IMG/VR virus record: IMGVR_UViG_3300012664_000177
Location: 1 to 24,074 of that record
Source: a virus
Taxonomy: Duplodnaviria; Caudoviricetes
Strand: one strand, 5' to 3'
Length of the DNA stretch: 24,074 nt
Both the position numbers and the translations under genes were made by a program. Positions 5,136-22,640 of this stretch are shown here, in pieces. Each line of letters begins with the position of its first letter. Position 1 is the first letter of the stretch. The notes beneath the pieces were generated by a model. It searched no databases and was not told where the DNA came from. It saw only the letters and a list, made by a program, of their open reading frames with translations.

Positions 5136-5648
5136 TTAAGCAAATAAATCTTCGTTCCATTCGCGATGTCCTTCGCGAAATGCCATGTTGCTTTGTGTTT
5201 CGCGCACTTCTACACGATAACACCACAAGCGTTTTGCTTCGCCTTCTCCCCACATTTCTGGAACATAAACCCCGTTAACGTATTTGTACAGCATGTCACT
5301 AAGTGCTTCGCAACCTAGCGCAGGTAAAACAATAACCTTGGCCATCTTCTTTTCTTGTAGCAGTTTGAATGTTTCCATCTCTGGATCATCTTGTGCAACG
5401 ATAAGTGTATGATCAAACTGGTCTTCTAAGAACTTCTTTAGTTCTTTTAACCCGCCGTAATCAGCAGCCCAGTTACGAGCATCTAGATCGTTTGTACCAA
5501 AATAGAATTTCATACTGAAACTATAACCATGGATTGTATTGCAATGGCTGTCTGCTCTCCATTGACGATATGCGCAAGGGAACGCATCGTGATACTCTTT
5601 TGTTGAGGTATACTTGTATTGTACTGGGGTTCGATCGAATGTTGACAT
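5136..5648 (-). CDS. queD: 6-carboxytetrahydropterin synthase (QueD/PTPS family)
   Basis: HCNTIHGY (CxxxHGx), DYGGLK, FDHTL, GCE, VEVRE T-fold motifs; SD AGGAG; near folE. Confidence 0.88.
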   Translation of the reverse strand: MSTFDRTPVQYKYTSTKEYHDAFPCAYRQWRADSHCNTIHGYSFSMKFYFGTNDLDARNWAADYGGLKELKKFLEDQFDHTLIVAQDDPEMETFKLLQEKKMAKVIVLPALGCEALSDMLYKYVNGVYVPEMWGEGEAKRLWCYRVEVRETQSNMAFREGHREWNEDLFA

Positions 5649-5849: not shown

Positions 5850-6241
5850 TTCGGTAACTGGTATCCGCCAGATTTATAATTAGCTTGTCCGAATACTACG
5901 CCGCGGACTCCACCGATAGGGTCAGCACAGTCTCCGTGCTTTCTCAAGATCAAATGAACATGCGGGTACATTACTGTTTGTCCGGCAGCTTTTCCCATGT
6001 TGATCCCAACATTGAATGCTTCACATTTGCCTTCGTCTACTAGCCTATTTCCGTGCCGTAGTGCAGATTCAAATGCATCCACAATAACAGTTGGTGTGTT
6101 ATACCTAGGAACAAACAATAAGTGTCCGTGTGTAACTGGGAATCGATCTTGGAATACTGCTGTATGGAAATCACTAAGCTCTTCTACCAACAGATCCCAA
6201 GGTGCTATACCATCTTTGTGTGCTTGTGCTAAATCATTCAT
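5846..6241 (-). CDS. HIT family nucleotide hydrolase
   Basis: DRFPVTHGHLLFVP, FNVGINMGKAAGQTVMYPHVHLI (HIT motif with the first His replaced by Tyr). Confidence 0.85.
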   Translation of the reverse strand: MNDLAQAHKDGIAPWDLLVEELSDFHTAVFQDRFPVTHGHLLFVPRYNTPTVIVDAFESALRHGNRLVDEGKCEAFNVGINMGKAAGQTVMYPHVHLILRKHGDCADPIGGVRGVVFGQANYKSGGYQLPK

Positions 6242-6939
6242 CGTGGTGCAAACTCCTGTTGTAGTTTAATGTTGTCAAAGAACTCTTTCTTTACTGACGG
6301 ATCTGTTTTGAAAGACCCGTTAAGCACCGTGGTCTGGGTGAGACTACTGTGAGCCATAATACCGCGATTTTCACAACATCCGTGGGTAGCCTGGATATAA
6401 ACTGCAACGTCTTTCGATCCAGTTGCGAACTCAATCTCGCGAGCGATGTCCATGCACAGCTCCTCTTGTAGCGTTCCACGTCTCGCACACCATTGTGCAA
6501 TTCTTGTATACTTCGAAAGGCCAATGAGTTTGGGACCAGCAATAATTCCAATATAAGCCACACCCGTAACAGGCTGGTGATGGTGCGAGCACATGCTCTT
6601 AAGCTCTGAACGCACAACCAGCATACCGTTGTATGCTCCGCTCGTATCGTTCGGGAAAGCCGTAGCATTAGGGCTCTCCTCGTACCTGCCAGCCATAATT
6701 TCATATACATACATCTTTGCTAAACGTCGGGCTGTGCCCTGAGAGTTTGGATCATTGTGTCGATCAATAATCAAACTGTCAAGCACGCCTTCGAACTTGC
6801 CTGTGAGCTCGTCAACTAGCAAGTCTTTTTCCTTGTCAGTGATATACTCACTGATATTGTCACCTGCCCAGAAACGCTTGTCTGCGTCAGTTAAGCGTTT
6901 GCGAATTACTTGTGATAGGTTTAAACTGTTATCTGTCAT
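6238..6939 (-). CDS. folE: GTP cyclohydrolase I
   Basis: TARRLAKMY, SMCSHH (Zn ligands), IGLSKYTRI, LQEEL, HGCCENRG. Confidence 0.95.
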   Translation of the reverse strand: MTDNSLNLSQVIRKRLTDADKRFWAGDNISEYITDKEKDLLVDELTGKFEGVLDSLIIDRHNDPNSQGTARRLAKMYVYEIMAGRYEESPNATAFPNDTSGAYNGMLVVRSELKSMCSHHHQPVTGVAYIGIIAGPKLIGLSKYTRIAQWCARRGTLQEELCMDIAREIEFATGSKDVAVYIQATHGCCENRGIMAHSSLTQTTVLNGSFKTDPSVKKEFFDNIKLQQEFAPR

Positions 6940-8320: not shown

Positions 8321-9523
8321 TTATTCTTCAATCTTTACAACTTGATACTTGGCTTCAGCAACGTGGTCACGATAGCGGTTGCCCGATCGATTCCACTGTC
8401 CGCCATTACCAGTAATAATATCCACGACGCGATCAACAGTGCTGTTGTTCCAATCACTAATGAGACCCATGTTGTGATGCGGTTCACGCAGTAAGTTTTG
8501 CATCTTGTGATAAGCATCATCTATTGACCAAGGGACGTAAAGGCGGTTTGGATCGTTTGCAAAAGTTTCGGGGAAACTGCGATAGGCAGGATAAAGCACA
8601 TTGCAGCCAAGAGTGTCAGCCTCGGAAACTGTGTTAGAGACCCAGTCTTGTAAAGCACAATTAAACAGCACACGAGTATTGTTAAGATGAGCATAGTATT
8701 CATTCTTGCTTATGTTGTCATAGATCTTGAGTTTGCCTTCTGCCTCCATACGGCGGGCTCTCTCCACGAACTCTTGATTATTAGATCTGAGTGGACCACC
8801 TGAGTAAATTGCAAACTCACACGGCTCGCTGGTGAGCTCACCGTACATTTCAATAAGGTCCATAAAGAAGCCAGGTTGCTTCTCTTGGTCAAAGCGAGCT
8901 GCGAAACCCACCCTCCGTGGACGGCTATCAAACGGTTGGATGGTTTCTTTGCCGCCAATGCGTTCAAGAACTTCTTCTTTTCCAAATGCGAGACCGGAAA
9001 TGTTGTAGATAGGAGCAGTCCAACCAGCGATGCGCATGTGGGCAACCATCTCTTCGTTGGTAGCAAGAACACCTGTAACAAACTCATTAACCATTTTTTC
9101 ATACAAGCTCATCCATTTTTCCATACCCCACACGTGTACAAAGTCATCTGGATCAATTGCTTGTGCTAGGCAACGAACAAACACCTTAGGACGTTGTTCT
9201 GCAGGAATCTGATCCATGATATACGGAAGCGATTCAATGCCGGGCTGGAACATGTCTTCAAAGTAAACAACGTCATCACCTGTTACATCACCGTTCTTCA
9301 TAAGCTGAACTAGATTCATCATCTGGCTCATACCAAAATAACTGCGTCCATGTGCGTCTAACACTTGTCCTACGCTGATAGCTTGTGTGTTGTCAATAGT
9401 TGTACCGGGTACATAAACAACGTCTAAGCCACGTCGATCAAACACGCGACGGTTCCACTCTGTGAGCTGTAATGTGTAGCGGGCTTCGTAACTTTCTAAG
9501 CCCATGTAAAATAGTTTTCTCAT
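8321..9523 (-). CDS. GT-B fold (GT4-like) glycosyltransferase
   Basis: C-terminal domain VGFAARFDQEKQP, SKNEYY, VSNTVSEADTLGC, YRSFPE typical of GT-B. Start set at ATG 9523 (ATGA overlap, AAGGA SD) rather than 9541. Confidence 0.8.
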   Translation of the reverse strand: MRKLFYMGLESYEARYTLQLTEWNRRVFDRRGLDVVYVPGTTIDNTQAISVGQVLDAHGRSYFGMSQMMNLVQLMKNGDVTGDDVVYFEDMFQPGIESLPYIMDQIPAEQRPKVFVRCLAQAIDPDDFVHVWGMEKWMSLYEKMVNEFVTGVLATNEEMVAHMRIAGWTAPIYNISGLAFGKEEVLERIGGKETIQPFDSRPRRVGFAARFDQEKQPGFFMDLIEMYGELTSEPCEFAIYSGGPLRSNNQEFVERARRMEAEGKLKIYDNISKNEYYAHLNNTRVLFNCALQDWVSNTVSEADTLGCNVLYPAYRSFPETFANDPNRLYVPWSIDDAYHKMQNLLREPHHNMGLISDWNNSTVDRVVDIITGNGGQWNRSGNRYRDHVAEAKYQVVKIEE

Positions 9524-12637: not shown

Positions 12638-13152
12638 TGTACTGAATCATCCTCGTATTTAGACCAGTGAGTAAAGCTATCTTGATTTTGCAATGTGTGC
12701 AAGCTATGGCACCATACTCCGGGATTAGTTGCTTTAAAATCCTTGTCGTCGATCTTTAGTGTAGCATTGTACCCAAGCTGGCAAACGTACGGCAGCTTGG
12801 CAGAGATCATTGGGATAAAGTAGTTATGCTCGCATAGCCCCGATTCCGCAACACCTTCTACACAACTAATATCAACATCGAGGGTACACCAGATCTCCTT
12901 GTCAAGGAAGTGATAGATCATGGTTTCCCACTTTGCCCATTCTGCTCCGTTGTTGACAGGAATGTTTGGAAAACTCATGTTGGCACCAAAGTAGATATGC
13001 TCAACCTGTTGTGCCCCACACGTCAATGCTAGTGCAATGTCAGCAGCTGGTTGTACACCGACCACAAACAGAGTATACTTGCCGTATGCTGGTGTGTGTT
13101 CTACTTCTGTACCGTAAAAGAATTTTACGTCTTCATGACCTTCACGATTCAT
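12634..13152 (-). CDS. Hypothetical protein coupled to the DpdA-like gene
   Basis: 172-aa ORF overlapping the end of the TGT-like gene; FYGTEVEHTP, HIYFGAN, TNPGVWCH motifs; function not recognised. Confidence 0.8.
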   Translation of the reverse strand: MNREGHEDVKFFYGTEVEHTPAYGKYTLFVVGVQPAADIALALTCGAQQVEHIYFGANMSFPNIPVNNGAEWAKWETMIYHFLDKEIWCTLDVDISCVEGVAESGLCEHNYFIPMISAKLPYVCQLGYNATLKIDDKDFKATNPGVWCHSLHTLQNQDSFTHWSKYEDDSVQ

Positions 13153-14710
13153 TATGAATATCCTGTTCCATTTTATCTAATACATCAGAGTCTAACTGTG
13201 TGCTATCGTCAAGTTGTGCAACGTCAGGTTCTTCTGAATCAAACAATGCATTAAACATAGTATTGGCATTCTTGGTCTTCTTGCCTTTGAATCCACGAGT
13301 ACCTACAATTTCCATCCAGTAGCTGTCATATGTTTCAATAATAGCTTCTGCTGTAGCTCTGTCTGGTGCAGCAAAGATTGATTCTACAATGTCTTCAAAC
13401 TTGGCATAGTCGCCTGTACTTCTACGCATCATTGCAGGATGTTCGCCTGCATCAAAACGTCGATTAGCTTCTTGCACCGCAGTCAAGTGCATCCAAACAT
13501 TATGACCCATAAGCAGTGCGTATGAGAAACTATCCCACGAAGTTTTACCTTCTTTGCCAATCTTATTTAGATCGCCGGGCTTGTAGATACAGATGTCTTT
13601 CATTGTTAGCATAGAGCTAATTGGTGAATCTTCCCAGCGTGGATAGATACCGTCTGTGACTACCCCTTGACCCCAGGGTCGAGTGTCTGTTGAGTATTTT
13701 TTGTCGTCTGCTGATGGGGCCATTCTGTAGCTCCACTTTGAGTTGTGTTCAAAGACGTTTTCAAAGTAGACTTGCCCATTCGCAGTCGCCAGAAACGGAC
13801 TGGCGCAATCAAAAGAAATAGTAAAAGCAGGGTTAACATATTTTCTCACAGCTCTCTGAATAACAGTAAGCAATACTGCCCACTCTAATTTACTTGTGCC
13901 CAAGAAGTGCATCCAGTCATGCACACCTTCCTGCAACAAGTTGTCATAGCGTAATGCTACAAGACGTTTTAATACCAAGTGTACGTCACACATGTTCTGA
14001 CCGCCCATGGACCAACCGTCAAAGTGTGTGTCTGGATACTTTGCAGGATCGCAGTACTCTTTCATGGTTTCGTACCAGGCATCTGCTGATGTATGGTTGT
14101 CGCCTTGCAAAACGTTCAAGAACTTGGCACCACCATTCTTAACACCTTTGCGGTGTTTCATAAAGTACTCGTTATTAAACTTTGTTGCATCAACTGCTTC
14201 TTGCAATGTAGTAATTTGACAAGCTGCCGATGCTTTCTTATCATGAATAACCCAGGTAGGAATATCCAAGATCATTCCGTAATCAGCAATATTGTCTAGC
14301 CAGTTAAGAATCAGTTCACGTTTTTTCTGAGCTTTGGGACAACCAGAGTTGGCTTTCCAATCGCCTTCCCACAGACCTTTAGCAATCTGGAAACCGCCTG
14401 AGTCCCCGAGAATAAATGTGCCAGGTTCTCGCGTTCGGACCATGTCTTCCGACCAATCCTGCTTTGCAAGATCGAGGTTAGCGTGGCCTCCGGAGTATAG
14501 ACTCCACTTATACGGGAATAGAGCTTTGTTGGAATCCAACCAGTTAAGCTGCTCCATATCAGTAAGGCCTTGAGGGAATCGAGCCGGATCCACGTAATGT
14601 TCATTTCGTTGCTTGCCTATAAATGTAGCATAGAAGCCAGATATAGCCGGCAGAAACACAGCATAGTCTTTCTGCTTGGCTGTGAGATTGTCTTGAACTG
14701 GCTCAGTCAT
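13142..14710 (-). CDS. dpdA: TGT-superfamily guanine transglycosylase, probably DNA-acting (DpdA-like)
   Basis: GDSGGFQ, ILDIP, NVLQG, GWSMGG, HFLG, SFDCASP map onto TGT catalytic motifs. No CxCxxC Zn site as in tRNA TGT. Clustered with folE/queD and replication genes. Confidence 0.75.
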   Translation of the reverse strand: MTEPVQDNLTAKQKDYAVFLPAISGFYATFIGKQRNEHYVDPARFPQGLTDMEQLNWLDSNKALFPYKWSLYSGGHANLDLAKQDWSEDMVRTREPGTFILGDSGGFQIAKGLWEGDWKANSGCPKAQKKRELILNWLDNIADYGMILDIPTWVIHDKKASAACQITTLQEAVDATKFNNEYFMKHRKGVKNGGAKFLNVLQGDNHTSADAWYETMKEYCDPAKYPDTHFDGWSMGGQNMCDVHLVLKRLVALRYDNLLQEGVHDWMHFLGTSKLEWAVLLTVIQRAVRKYVNPAFTISFDCASPFLATANGQVYFENVFEHNSKWSYRMAPSADDKKYSTDTRPWGQGVVTDGIYPRWEDSPISSMLTMKDICIYKPGDLNKIGKEGKTSWDSFSYALLMGHNVWMHLTAVQEANRRFDAGEHPAMMRRSTGDYAKFEDIVESIFAAPDRATAEAIIETYDSYWMEIVGTRGFKGKKTKNANTMFNALFDSEEPDVAQLDDSTQLDSDVLDKMEQDIHNES

Positions 14711-19779: not shown

Positions 19780-20040
19780 TTAGAGAGTTTTGCCAACTGT
19801 TTCGAGAATAGTTTCCAACAATTCGTGGTCTTGTTTTTCTTGACCAAACTGTGCTTTGTGTGCAAGTCGGATTGCTTTTTTTAGTACGCCTGGCTTGATC
19901 TCAAGCTCGTCAGCAATAGCTTTGATAGTGTCAGTTAGGCCGCCTTGCAAGGTGTCAATTTCGTGCATGACTTGCATACCTTCATTGATAATTTGAGTGA
20001 GTTTGATCTTTTGATCGCCGTTGAAAGTTTTTGTATCCAT
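19780..20040 (-). CDS. Small dsDNA-binding protein, T4 DsbA/GapR-like
   Basis: 86 aa, all-helical; IKAIADELEIKPGVLKKAIRLAHK resembles the DsbA/GapR pattern; own promoter and SD GGAG. Confidence 0.6.
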   Translation of the reverse strand: MDTKTFNGDQKIKLTQIINEGMQVMHEIDTLQGGLTDTIKAIADELEIKPGVLKKAIRLAHKAQFGQEKQDHELLETILETVGKTL

Positions 20041-20061: not shown

Positions 20062-20089
20062 ATTATACAGAGATAGTTTACAAACGCAA
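20062..20089 (-). promoter_or_regulatory. Sigma70-like promoter for the dsbA-like/clpP/polymerase genes
   Basis: TTGCGT (20089-20084)-16 nt-TATAAT (20067-20062), about 20 nt upstream of ATG 20040. Confidence 0.65.
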
Positions 20090-20096
20090 TATGTTT

Positions 20097-20196
20097 GGAG
20101 AAAGTGCTACACTTTTGGATTCCCAGTAGCGAATTGGGCCGTCCAGGGCAGTAGCCTCCCCACACTACGGTAACGAGTACCGGTCCTAAGGTGTGT
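20097..20196 (-). ncRNA. Candidate structured RNA, two stem-loop domains, family not recognised
   Basis: GC-rich intergenic island with six nested helices: CACAC/GTGTG, CGGTA/TACCG; GGAG/CTCC, GCTAC/GTAGC, TGGA/TCCA, CCCA/TGGG. Strand inferred from the flanking genes. Confidence 0.65.
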
Positions 20197-20775
20197 TCAT
20201 TTTCGACCTATAACCATATACCTTGTGTACGTGGTTTCCGGGTCTTGTAACTCTAGTTGTCCTTGATACAATACTTCAGTCAAGGGAAACTTTTTTAATA
20301 TATCTTGTGTGCTGTAAAAAGGTTTACTCTCTACGTTGTCACGTGCCTGCATTACTATCATAGTGTTGTTAGGAATGTTGCTGAACCATTCGGTACCATC
20401 CATGTCAGTCAGGCTACAGTTGATCACAACACCATCTGTTCCTAGTTGGCGATAGTCGAGAGTGTTAGCATCCTTGTGCATGTATTCTATATTTTGGGCA
20501 CCCACACGATCCAGCATGCGTTCACTTTGATTCAACATAGCCCGATTGGTTTCTACATTGATAATTTTCTTAACACGAATCATAGGATCTAGTGTTATAT
20601 ACAATGCTAGATTACCATACCAAGATCCTAGTATATACATTGTAGAAATTTCAGGTTGAACTCGTGCTAGTTCTTGCATCAACCAAACTTTACTTTTAGT
20701 TAAGTCGTGTGTGAAACTGCCTTGTAGGCTGTATCCACTAGACTCTGCTATCGCATAAAGTTCGTTGAGTATCAT
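20197..20775 (-). CDS. Putative class I SAM-dependent methyltransferase
   Basis: YILGSWYG motif I, INVET motif II, KDAN, VINCS, terminal RYMVIG strand. Confidence 0.65.
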   Translation of the reverse strand: MILNELYAIAESSGYSLQGSFTHDLTKSKVWLMQELARVQPEISTMYILGSWYGNLALYITLDPMIRVKKIINVETNRAMLNQSERMLDRVGAQNIEYMHKDANTLDYRQLGTDGVVINCSLTDMDGTEWFSNIPNNTMIVMQARDNVESKPFYSTQDILKKFPLTEVLYQGQLELQDPETTYTRYMVIGRK

Positions 20776-22640
20776 CTAGCTGACTTGTCTTTAGCGTCAA
20801 TTGCGGCCAACCGGCGTGCTAGATCTTTGATGTCAACAGGTTTGGACTTTTCTTGCTCTCGAGCTTTTTGTCCAACTCGAGCAACCATGTCCTGATACTT
20901 GTCGCTGTACTTGGCTTCTTGGCCATTGTTCTCTTGAACTCCAAAATCATCACGTGCTACTCTTTCTACTGATTTAGATCCTGGGTCCATAACATCTCTA
21001 AATGAAACATCTTGTGCTCCTGCATTTTTACCAGCTAATGCATTTTTCCTGATTTGTTGCATTGCTAAATTGACACTATCCTGACCGTAATCACTTGGGA
21101 ATAACGAAGCTTGTGGATTATCTGCAGTCGACAATGCAGGCGCCATTTTTGAGAATGCATGAGCACCTGGGTTCGGACTTGCTATTTGTCTAGTAACGGG
21201 CTTTGTGCTAGATTTTGCCGGTTGAGATTTGGCTTTTGTTTTGGATTTTGTTTTAGTCTTTGATGTAGCTGTTGCAGGAGCAGGAGCATCTGGAATGCTT
21301 GCTGTCGGAGAGAAAGTATTTACACTGGTATCTGCCGGTGTTGTTTTTTCTTTCTTGCGACCACTCATTGATGCAAGTGTTTTTTCAAGTTTTGCGTTAA
21401 CAGATTGAATCTGTTGCAGTCTGCGTTTTAGGGTAGTGTTGTCTTGTTCAAGATTATCAATCTCTTGTGTTTGATTCTGATCAACTTGTGCAATCTGTGC
21501 TAGCATACGCTCTTGATCTTTATCAACTGCACGAATCTTTTCGAAGTCTTGCTTGTCTTGCTCTTGACCACGCATAAGGTCTTTTGCTAGAGCTTCGATG
21601 CCCGAGCCAGCAGTTGGGAAATCAGACTTAGCTCGAGCTATTGCTCTCTGTAAGCTAACATCTCTTACTTCTGTGCCGAGCTCATCTTCTTTTTTTTTAT
21701 CTGCTTCCGTTACATCTTGCTGGCCATAGTCTTCAAACTCATCAATTGTATACTGGCGATGATCGTTGCTACCAATTTTATAAAGTACAATAGCAGTATA
21801 GTCGTCACCAAATTCTGGCTTCCATCCTAGCAGGCTCAGTTTGCGTTCTGCTTGGGCTGAGTCCCCAGCTTCAGACCAAATTTCCCATGCAAGATGGAAT
21901 AGCAAGTCTTCGTATTCATCACTACCGGGCCCGTCTTCTGGTTTTTCAGCAAACTCTAATACCGAGCCTTCTGCAGCGCTCTTTTGCAAGAATGATGGAA
22001 TCGGTCTATCATCTTTTCTCTGTACTTTTGTACTTGTGATAGTCGGGTCAACTCTTGTTGCTACTGTCATACCACTAGTACGACCTGCTTTAGACGGGGC
22101 ACCTTTTAAATTAGTAGCAACTGCACTACGCTTTGCTAAACTGTTAGAACTATCGGGCCATTGTTGACCTTCGTTTGTACCGGTAGCTAATCTATCGTGG
22201 TCTGCATCACGTTCTGCTTTCTTAGCAGCCTCACGCTTTTTGCGGAAGATTTCACGGAAGTAGTCTTCGTCATCGGGAATAACACCGGGACTGGATTGGC
22301 CACGGTATCTTGGCTTTGCTGGAGTGTCACCGGGGCGAGGGTAATCAATACCGGGCAAATCATATGGGCCACCTTCGTCTACTGCGGGTTTATTCATTTG
22401 CAAATCTAAATAAGCATTTACTAGGTCGCTGTCAAAATCCTCGTCGTAAGAAAACAAAGCATGGGCTCTCTTACGCCCCAAATCATTTACTGCTAGATCA
22501 AATGCATAGTCTAACACTTCGTCGGCTGCACCAGTAGTATCTAATTCTGGTGCTACTTTAAAAATTTGATATGCCAACTCTTCGGCATAGTTAGGGTTAG
22601 GGGTTGAGTTGTCGTCTTCAAATAAGTTATGTAAATTCAT
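20772..22640 (-). CDS. Large acidic/low-complexity hypothetical protein, possibly virion-internal
   Basis: 622 aa; modular blocks separated by (V/A/T/L)xE motifs, a coiled coil and a K/T/S/P-rich linker. Confidence 0.8.
   Translation of the reverse strand: MNLHNLFEDDNSTPNPNYAEELAYQIFKVAPELDTTGAADEVLDYAFDLAVNDLGRKRAHALFSYDEDFDSDLVNAYLDLQMNKPAVDEGGPYDLPGIDYPRPGDTPAKPRYRGQSSPGVIPDDEDYFREIFRKKREAAKKAERDADHDRLATGTNEGQQWPDSSNSLAKRSAVATNLKGAPSKAGRTSGMTVATRVDPTITSTKVQRKDDRPIPSFLQKSAAEGSVLEFAEKPEDGPGSDEYEDLLFHLAWEIWSEAGDSAQAERKLSLLGWKPEFGDDYTAIVLYKIGSNDHRQYTIDEFEDYGQQDVTEADKKKEDELGTEVRDVSLQRAIARAKSDFPTAGSGIEALAKDLMRGQEQDKQDFEKIRAVDKDQERMLAQIAQVDQNQTQEIDNLEQDNTTLKRRLQQIQSVNAKLEKTLASMSGRKKEKTTPADTSVNTFSPTASIPDAPAPATATSKTKTKSKTKAKSQPAKSSTKPVTRQIASPNPGAHAFSKMAPALSTADNPQASLFPSDYGQDSVNLAMQQIRKNALAGKNAGAQDVSFRDVMDPGSKSVERVARDDFGVQENNGQEAKYSDKYQDMVARVGQKAREQEKSKPVDIKDLARRLAAIDAKDKSAR

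Follow-up and report, generated by a model that had tools for sequence, protein, structure and literature searches.

A segment of about 90 nt on the minus strand of the window (the whole stretch of 24,074 nt that was analysed) is, on comparative grounds, one copy of a conserved pseudoknotted RNA family that occurs in contigs of uncultured jumbo phages. As the preliminary description had proposed, it appears to be a phage RNA that presents rRNA-antisense loops: the loops are conserved, the stems covary, and the antisense (minus) strand is likely the transcribed one. The family is real, widespread and apparently undescribed, and its action on rRNA is predicted from sequence. We consider it very probable that the RNA pairs with rRNA in some form.

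Location and fold of the element

All rRNA position numbers refer to the E. coli rrnB operon (L241), which served as reference, and the helix names (69, 70, 71 etc.) are those which we take to apply to the respective 23S positions. The parts of the element are as follows.

20106..20195, minus strand: whole structured RNA element, about 90 nt (covariance model R1 and covariation)
20161..20195, minus strand: domain 1, consisting of outer helix P1, 8-nt internal loop and inner hairpin (RNAfold and family comparison)
20181..20192, minus strand: arm A, 12 nt fully complementary to 23S 1920-1931 (complement test against rrnB)
20170..20174, minus strand: GUUAC segment, antisense to the loop side of helix 69, 23S 1910-1914 (consensus of alignment A1 and flank test)
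20146..20160, minus strand: hairpin P2 with a 7-nt loop, which is a pseudoknot strand and resembles the antisense of 16S 519-527 (covariation)
20116..20145, minus strand: stem-loop P3, bearer of the second antisense loop (covariation)
20126..20134, minus strand: loop D of class I, with 8 of its 9 nt complementary to 23S 1930-1937 (best site in all of 16S and 23S)
20106..20113, minus strand: 3′ tail, which closes the pseudoknot with the P2 loop, then a short U-rich run (covariation and T content)

Model R1, whose training set includes the window, matches the minus strand at 20104-20203 with 80 bits and has no match there on the plus strand. A weak R1 match at 9172-9270 on the plus strand (15 bits, E 0.015) falls within a coding region of the opposite strand and is probably due to chance. 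In the RNAfold prediction, 8 nt of the 12-nt antisense segment are found in the internal loop, and the 8-nt segment is found in a 9-nt terminal loop. The folding energy of the minus strand alone is unremarkable (z 0.27); support for the fold is comparative. In the comparative fold, domain 2 consists of a 4-bp hairpin, the loop of which pairs with the 3′ tail to form a pseudoknot, plus a second stem-loop. The fold described originally is supported by covariation, but domain 2 is not the single multi-helix arm drawn by RNAfold, and the pseudoknot had been overlooked.

Both antisense segments were confirmed at their positions; they complement E. coli 23S 1920-1931 and 1930-1937 without a mismatch. 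For arm A and 23S, a duplex of -22.1 kcal/mol is predicted. The GUUAC segment also pairs in cis, within the inner hairpin. Judged by its complementarity, domain 1 amounts to an antisense version of 23S helix 69 together with the 3′ flank. A 7/8 match to the 16S 530 region, previously called weak, is real and coincides with the pseudoknot (P2) loop.

The expectation that a lone 12-nt rRNA match occurs by chance proved correct, with six such matches in the window (both strands) and with 24 of 1500 shuffled elements reaching one. The combination of a 12-mer with an adjacent 8-mer is rare, being found in 1 of 1500 shuffles of the element. Upon co-folding, 23S 1901-1940 was the best of 220 windows, by a margin of only 1 kcal/mol.

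A conserved RNA family in jumbo-phage contigs

A pattern search of IMG/VR with the two arms yielded at least 120 loci, and about 860 stored stretches are estimated to carry the element. A second search used only the pseudoknot core, to avoid circularity on the antisense arms. The 4-bp hairpin was found in 94 of 120 loci (88 unique); the 88 include a few chance matches, which were retained. Upstream of the core, 81 of the 88 have a perfect match of at least 8 nt to 23S 1918-1933, and downstream of it, 50 of 88 have a perfect match of at least 8 nt within 23S 1929-1937. In the control flanks, at most 9 do so at any position.

The element is present once in each of five long contigs and twice in another one. 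The second copy in a complete genome of 353 kb (L377, G002:C1:76939-77017) has kept the pseudoknot and loop D and has lost the helix 69 arm, which is likewise absent from L227. Among the 120 matches listed for GTDB cellular genomes there is one true member (L324), which is probably a phage contig inside a binned genome; the others look like chance. No match to R1 or arm A occurs in the cultured phages Phosso, Atu_ph07, 2.275.O and GAP32, which are related by PolB, and a blastn comparison of two members with 50,697 phage records returned nothing. Rfam 15, a check already suggested in the preliminary description, assigns the element to no family: the only match in the whole window up to E 5 lies elsewhere and below threshold, and small self-cleaving ribozymes (HDV-like, twister, pistol, hatchet) give no match for the element. 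In the titles and abstract openings that make up the searched literature, the family is not described. The seven supplementary files searched from a catalogue of 10,000 phage RNA candidates (PMC10690425) contain no match; its files 1 and 2, outside this search, may hold the family as an unannotated candidate.

Covariation was computed on a 74-sequence alignment (A1, MAFFT), in which 82.6% of the cells pair. The covariation score is 0.377, compared to 0.136 upon shuffling and at most 0.114 for slid partners. P2 is paired in 99.3% and has compensatory changes at 3 of 4 pairs. For the pseudoknot between P2 loop and 3′ tail these values are 97.7% and 3 of 6 pairs, and both strands change together. 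P3 is 79-86% paired, with compensatory changes at all six counted pairs. Domain 1 aligns less well (55-63% paired); for P1, the value of only 63% in the MAFFT alignment is explained by its variable length. The family thus behaves as had been anticipated for a functional RNA with loop-borne arms, namely with fixed arms on covarying stems. As G-U pairs in the stems outnumber A-C pairs by 126 to 18, the antisense (minus) strand is likely the folded one.

Complementarity to rRNA beyond the two segments

The flanks of domain 1 beyond the core also follow helix 69. The 84 distinct flanks score 8.5, compared to 5.4 +/- 0.2 after shuffling, and only 2 of 618 other rRNA windows outscore helix 69 in this test. 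In some variants the match covers almost the whole of helix 69; in L324 and L431, the complement extends over 22 nt with one gap. Part of this flank signal could be explicable in cis, since any sequence antisense to a hairpin also forms a hairpin.

Loop D was sorted into classes for 79 unique members, nine loci with weak folds having been dropped. There are 44 members in class I, 19 in class II, 7 in class III, 2 in class IV and 7 others, of which three look like misparsed class I loops and four are without domain 1. For class I, the best site in all of 16S and 23S is 23S 1930-37, and for class III it is 23S 1971-78; in both cases P is about 0.004 and none of 632 windows is better. One class III member is shifted to 23S 1969-1976. 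Class III members also bear a segment antisense to 23S 1828-1833, which is able to pair with their own loop in cis. In seven loci (L004, L006, L047, L071, L076, L100, L148), CCUAAGG, a sense copy able to pair with arm A in cis, comes after that arm and precedes the antisense of 23S 1828-1833. This subfamily is possibly a self-locked form.

The remaining classes fit 16S better than 23S. For the class II loop, 23S 1964-69 is a weak site (P 0.10, -8.7 kcal/mol) and 16S 1053-60 a better one (-10.5 kcal/mol). The class IV loop reaches -14.0 kcal/mol on 16S 1379-86, far better than -5.6 kcal/mol on 23S 1938-43 (P 0.23 for 23S). We estimate that these 16S fits of class II and IV loops are about at chance level. 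A combined P of 0.005 for 23S over loop classes II-IV was set aside because classes II and IV fit 16S better.

Predicted loop variants were also searched for. The perfect complement of 23S 1964-1971 is present in the true members L647/L654 (one sequence), L649 and L650, representing about two lineages, while its A and C control alternatives occur in non-members only. For 16S, the class II loop in its perfect form likewise turned up in non-members and in no member. In the class IV scan, 13 of 15 matches are members, all with the same loop, and none is a better 23S complement. An arm-A variant fitted to actinobacterial helix 69, in the form in which we take that sequence to be, gave five matches, none of them a member.

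Domain 1 reaches over 23S 1931-1933 in 15 of 19 class II members compared to 8 of 44 class I members, in which loop D already covers these positions; the Fisher p of 8e-6 is overstated because class labels cluster by kinship on the 38-row DsbA tree. The P2 loop carries a perfect 16S-antisense 9-mer (519-527) in 64 of 106 members and has lost it in 42. As this loop changes together with its tail, its 16S match would be optional or due to chance, and the pseudoknot is the constraint that the alignment demonstrates. 23S 1904-1960 is identical in 30 of 30 Pseudomonadota genomes. With such an invariant target, no host-phage covariation is measurable.

Genomic context and strand

The window is a fragment of a jumbo phage, and all of its long ORFs are on the minus strand. 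Its PolB is closest to that of Sinorhizobium phage Phosso (51%), followed by Atu_ph07 and GAP32-like phages (42-43%). We infer a host among the Proteobacteria; homologs of ClpP gave no host name. The neighbours of the element are the following.

20197..20775, minus strand: 192-aa ORF, class I SAM methyltransferase-like (lead only), with its stop 2 nt before the element
20062..20089, minus strand: sigma70-like promoter of the next gene, downstream of the element (perfect -10, 3/6 at -35, 16-nt spacer; read from sequence)
19780..20040, minus strand: gene for an 86-aa DNA-binding protein (phrog_12534, phrog_639), which we take to be DsbA-like

The promoter, which had been noticed before as lying downstream of the element, was thus found by reading the sequence; a consensus promoter scan did not list it. 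The 192-aa ORF has no Pfam or PHROG match and its single-sequence fold is unusable (pLDDT 44), but its feature neighbours in the ESM Atlas are named methyltransferase. The DsbA-like gene is the commonest neighbour of the family (within 1.5 kb in 44 of 84 loci), and the upstream genes vary among genomes. A guide RNA for the adjacent methyltransferase had been envisaged. This idea finds no support: only 9 of 84 loci have a methyltransferase homolog within 1.5 kb, and the target of the second loop moves between classes.

Context was counted for 205 unique members with flanks. A stop codon on the same strand is found at most 25 nt upstream in 133 of 205, compared to 24 of 205 on the opposite strand. 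The late-promoter motif TAAATA is directly upstream in 20 of 205 (control windows: 3 and 4), and promoter motifs on the opposite strand number 2-8 of 205. Downstream, the motif for the next gene is late in 56 and sigma70-like in 61 of the 205. The T fraction is 0.5-0.7 at positions 2-6 after the tail. An intrinsic terminator would have a G+C-rich hairpin with a U run directly after it; at least five T in the 8 nt after the tail are found in 62 of 205, and the element is absent from the terminator scan of the window. From the counts of stops, promoters and neighbours, it is therefore likely that the element forms the end of a late transcript or is an RNA of its own, with no tie to the methyltransferase. 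The earlier suggestion of a 3′ trailer or stand-alone RNA fits this context. An RNA run (X1; contigs only, share 0.04) covers the neighbouring genes and not the element, both in the window and in L069, and carries no weight either way.

Further features of the carriers were noted. A 622-aa ORF at 20772-22640 (minus strand) has no Pfam or PHROG match, contains repeated acidic modules and has an internal TAAATA at 21322, which could start the transcript carrying the element. Genes for bS21 are present in three of five long carrier contigs (L659, L660, L661). On the minus strand of the window, ORFs at 5136-5648, 6238-6939 and 13142-14710 resemble QueD, FolE and a tRNA-guanine-transglycosylase-like protein, which suggests deazaguanine DNA modification; the 522-aa ORF of this set has no Pfam or PHROG match.

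A similar hairpin in T4 species 2 RNA

T4 species 2 RNA (rnaD) is a late small stable RNA, to which the accessible parts of two publications assign no function (PMC9697503, PMC12685909). Within its 5′ hairpin lies UCGCUACC, which is perfectly complementary to 23S 1929-1936 and thus resembles the class I loop D in target. The stem-loop register is identical to that of class I loop D, and both RNAs are late, or predicted to be so, and of similar size. In T4 rnaD (L667:1254-1372) and its relatives, this hairpin is invariant in 9 of 9 aligned Tevenvirinae (L667-L675), with one covarying stem pair. Unlike the jumbo-phage element, rnaD has neither a helix 69 arm nor a matching pseudoknot, and it sits in a tRNA cluster.

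Homology over the whole RNA was not found, R1 giving only E 0.51 over 31 nt. Shuffled rnaD gives such an 8-nt match 9% of the time, while shuffling the 15-nt hairpin gives P 0.004 in a test made post hoc. A second 8-nt match in rnaD (23S 1937-1944) is confined to T4 and is probably due to chance. At most, rnaD and the element would have a module in common, and this likeness was found post hoc.

Comparison to known RNA and protein systems

Loop-presenting antisense RNAs such as CopA/CopT, ColE1 RNA I and OxyS expose loops as toeholds on stems, followed by strand invasion. The element resembles them in having conserved unpaired, target-complementary segments on covarying stems. They target mRNAs or primers, often from the same locus, whereas the target of the element would be the universal rRNA core, and its scaffold, unlike theirs, is a pseudoknot.

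Eukaryotic U3, U8 and U14 snoRNAs and the archaeal C/D and H/ACA guides place several short arms on discontinuous rRNA segments that are neighbours in the fold, which is also the arrangement in the element. In box C/D guides, the C (RUGAUGA) and D (CUGA) boxes flank the antisense element; in H/ACA guides, two arms flank an unpaired target dinucleotide and ACA is near the 3′ end. The element is phage-encoded and has no linked partner gene, and its consensus is without C, D, H or ACA boxes. C and D boxes are absent from the A1 consensus and the conserved columns; concerning H/ACA, the arms overlap at 23S 1930-1931 and the 3′ tail sits in the pseudoknot.

The site predicted for the element, the interface formed by helices 68-71 in free or immature 50S, is also where YjgA (PMC11260487) and a synthetic PNA against helix 69 (PMC12828698) act. 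Other anti-association and late 50S assembly proteins with this site are RsfS and IF3. While these are proteins and a synthetic oligomer, the element would be a natural RNA, and the literature searched contains no natural RNA that acts on this interface by base pairing.

Proposed mechanism

Conservation, fold, strand polarity as judged from sequence, and complementarity are regarded as demonstrated by the comparison. As to function, our preferred explanation, held tentatively and with chances slightly short of even, is that the phage makes this RNA late in infection and that it base-pairs with host 50S subunits which are free or still immature, keeping helices 69-70 in an open state. The RNA would come from the 3′ end of late transcripts or, in a subset, from a late promoter of its own. 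The pseudoknot may serve as a rigid, exonuclease-resistant scaffold. The 8-nt internal loop would act as a toehold from which domain 1 invades helix 69, and loop D would provide a second grip on 23S. Bound subunits would fail to mature or to join 30S, which would cut the host ribosome supply and possibly feed rRNA to recycling.

In the consulted parts of the respective publications, undocked pre-50S has flexible helices 69 and 71 (PMC11260487), free 50S is cut at loop 70, a known toxin cut site (PMC6101614), and PNA against helix 69 blocks translation (reviewed in PMC12828698). From these flexible helices, the accessible loop 70 and the anti-helix-69 PNA as described there, capture of free or immature 50S is therefore favoured. 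Blocking mature subunits would be costly, as the phage needs ribosomes late and as three of five carriers encode bS21. The direction of the effect is uncertain and is the weakest step of this explanation.

More generally, a modular class of phage RNAs is conceivable that pairs with the conserved rRNA core through a fixed helix 69 arm and an exchangeable arm to sites in 23S or in the 16S decoding region, and that controls subunit maturation or joining, with T4 species 2 RNA using the same grip. We rate this a little better than an even bet.

Alternative explanations

Rather unlikely, but best placed among the alternatives, is a tethered 3′-UTR device or two-subunit clamp. On late mRNAs, the element would catch 50S (and 30S via the 16S-matching loops) released at the stop codon, and would keep subunits near phage mRNAs or park them. 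The closely preceding stop codons, the P2 loop fitting 16S 519-527 in most members, the best fits of class II and IV loops on 16S and the bS21 genes all agree with this. Yet a promoter motif for the next gene often stands between the element and that gene (the 56 late and 61 sigma70-like cases), and the upstream gene is unrelated between genomes. In the P2 loop, which covaries with the tail, the match to 16S is missing from 42 of 106 members, and the class II loop never takes its perfect 16S form in a member.

Unlikely too is a guide or adaptor, with arms that select 23S and a pseudoknot that recruits an unlinked phage or host nuclease or modifying enzyme acting near helix 69. A constant scaffold with exchangeable arms would suit such a role, and since arm A is near-invariant, the site of action could be fixed relative to it. 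However, there is no fixed neighbour gene, C/D and ACA boxes are lacking in the consensus, the arms overlap by 2 nt on the target rather than flanking a free base, and the second target shifts between loop classes.

It is improbable that the RNA is a shield, which by transient pairing would hide helix 69 and loop 70 from those abortive-infection nucleases of the host that cleave 23S. The main arm covers 23S 1920-1931 and not the cut site, and invasion of helix 69 by 12 bp is expected to inactivate rather than to protect. In favour of a shield are the known toxin cut site in loop 70 of free 50S, as given in the consulted part of PMC6101614, and a GGAAU segment, antisense to 23S 1938-1942, in 34 of 72 class II arms. 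However, GGAAU fits 16S near 1380 as well, and is present in only 6 of 71 class I arms.

Still less probable is a purely cis-acting element (terminator or 3′-end stabiliser) that derives from a captured inverted piece of rDNA, with the complementarity being a relic. Its position at the ends of transcription units and the U-rich tail are in keeping with this origin, as is the one copy without domain 1 (L377). But a relic would drift, while here the unpaired arms are fixed and the stems covary; class III and the 1964-1971 variant match other, non-collinear 23S sites, and the terminator scan did not list the element.

A plus-strand helix 69 decoy for ribotoxins, which had been suggested earlier, is very improbable. 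In isolation, the plus strand has a slightly better fold (z -1.42), and its likeness to helix 69 is unavoidable, but the excess of G-U over A-C pairs and the few stop codons and promoter motifs on the opposite strand speak against such a decoy. A homing-endonuclease site at the DNA level, as implied by the earlier mention of I-CeuI, is equally improbable: that enzyme recognizes a contiguous site of about 19 bp or more, whereas the two pieces found here, of 12 bp and 8 bp, are separated by 47 nt and occur in permuted order.

Significance

To our knowledge, the known phage tools against ribosomes are proteins, and the known bacterial antisense RNAs target mRNA. If the proposed pairing is true, phages would take over their hosts by a new route, through an RNA directed at the universal core of 23S where the subunits join, and the bacterial world would have a counterpart of snoRNA-rRNA pairing. 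Because E. coli and all 30 Pseudomonadota sampled share an identical target, the idea is testable with E. coli ribosomes. It would also provide a first target for the long-unexplained T4 species 2 RNA, and the loop shared with rnaD makes the role of that RNA testable in the best-studied phage.
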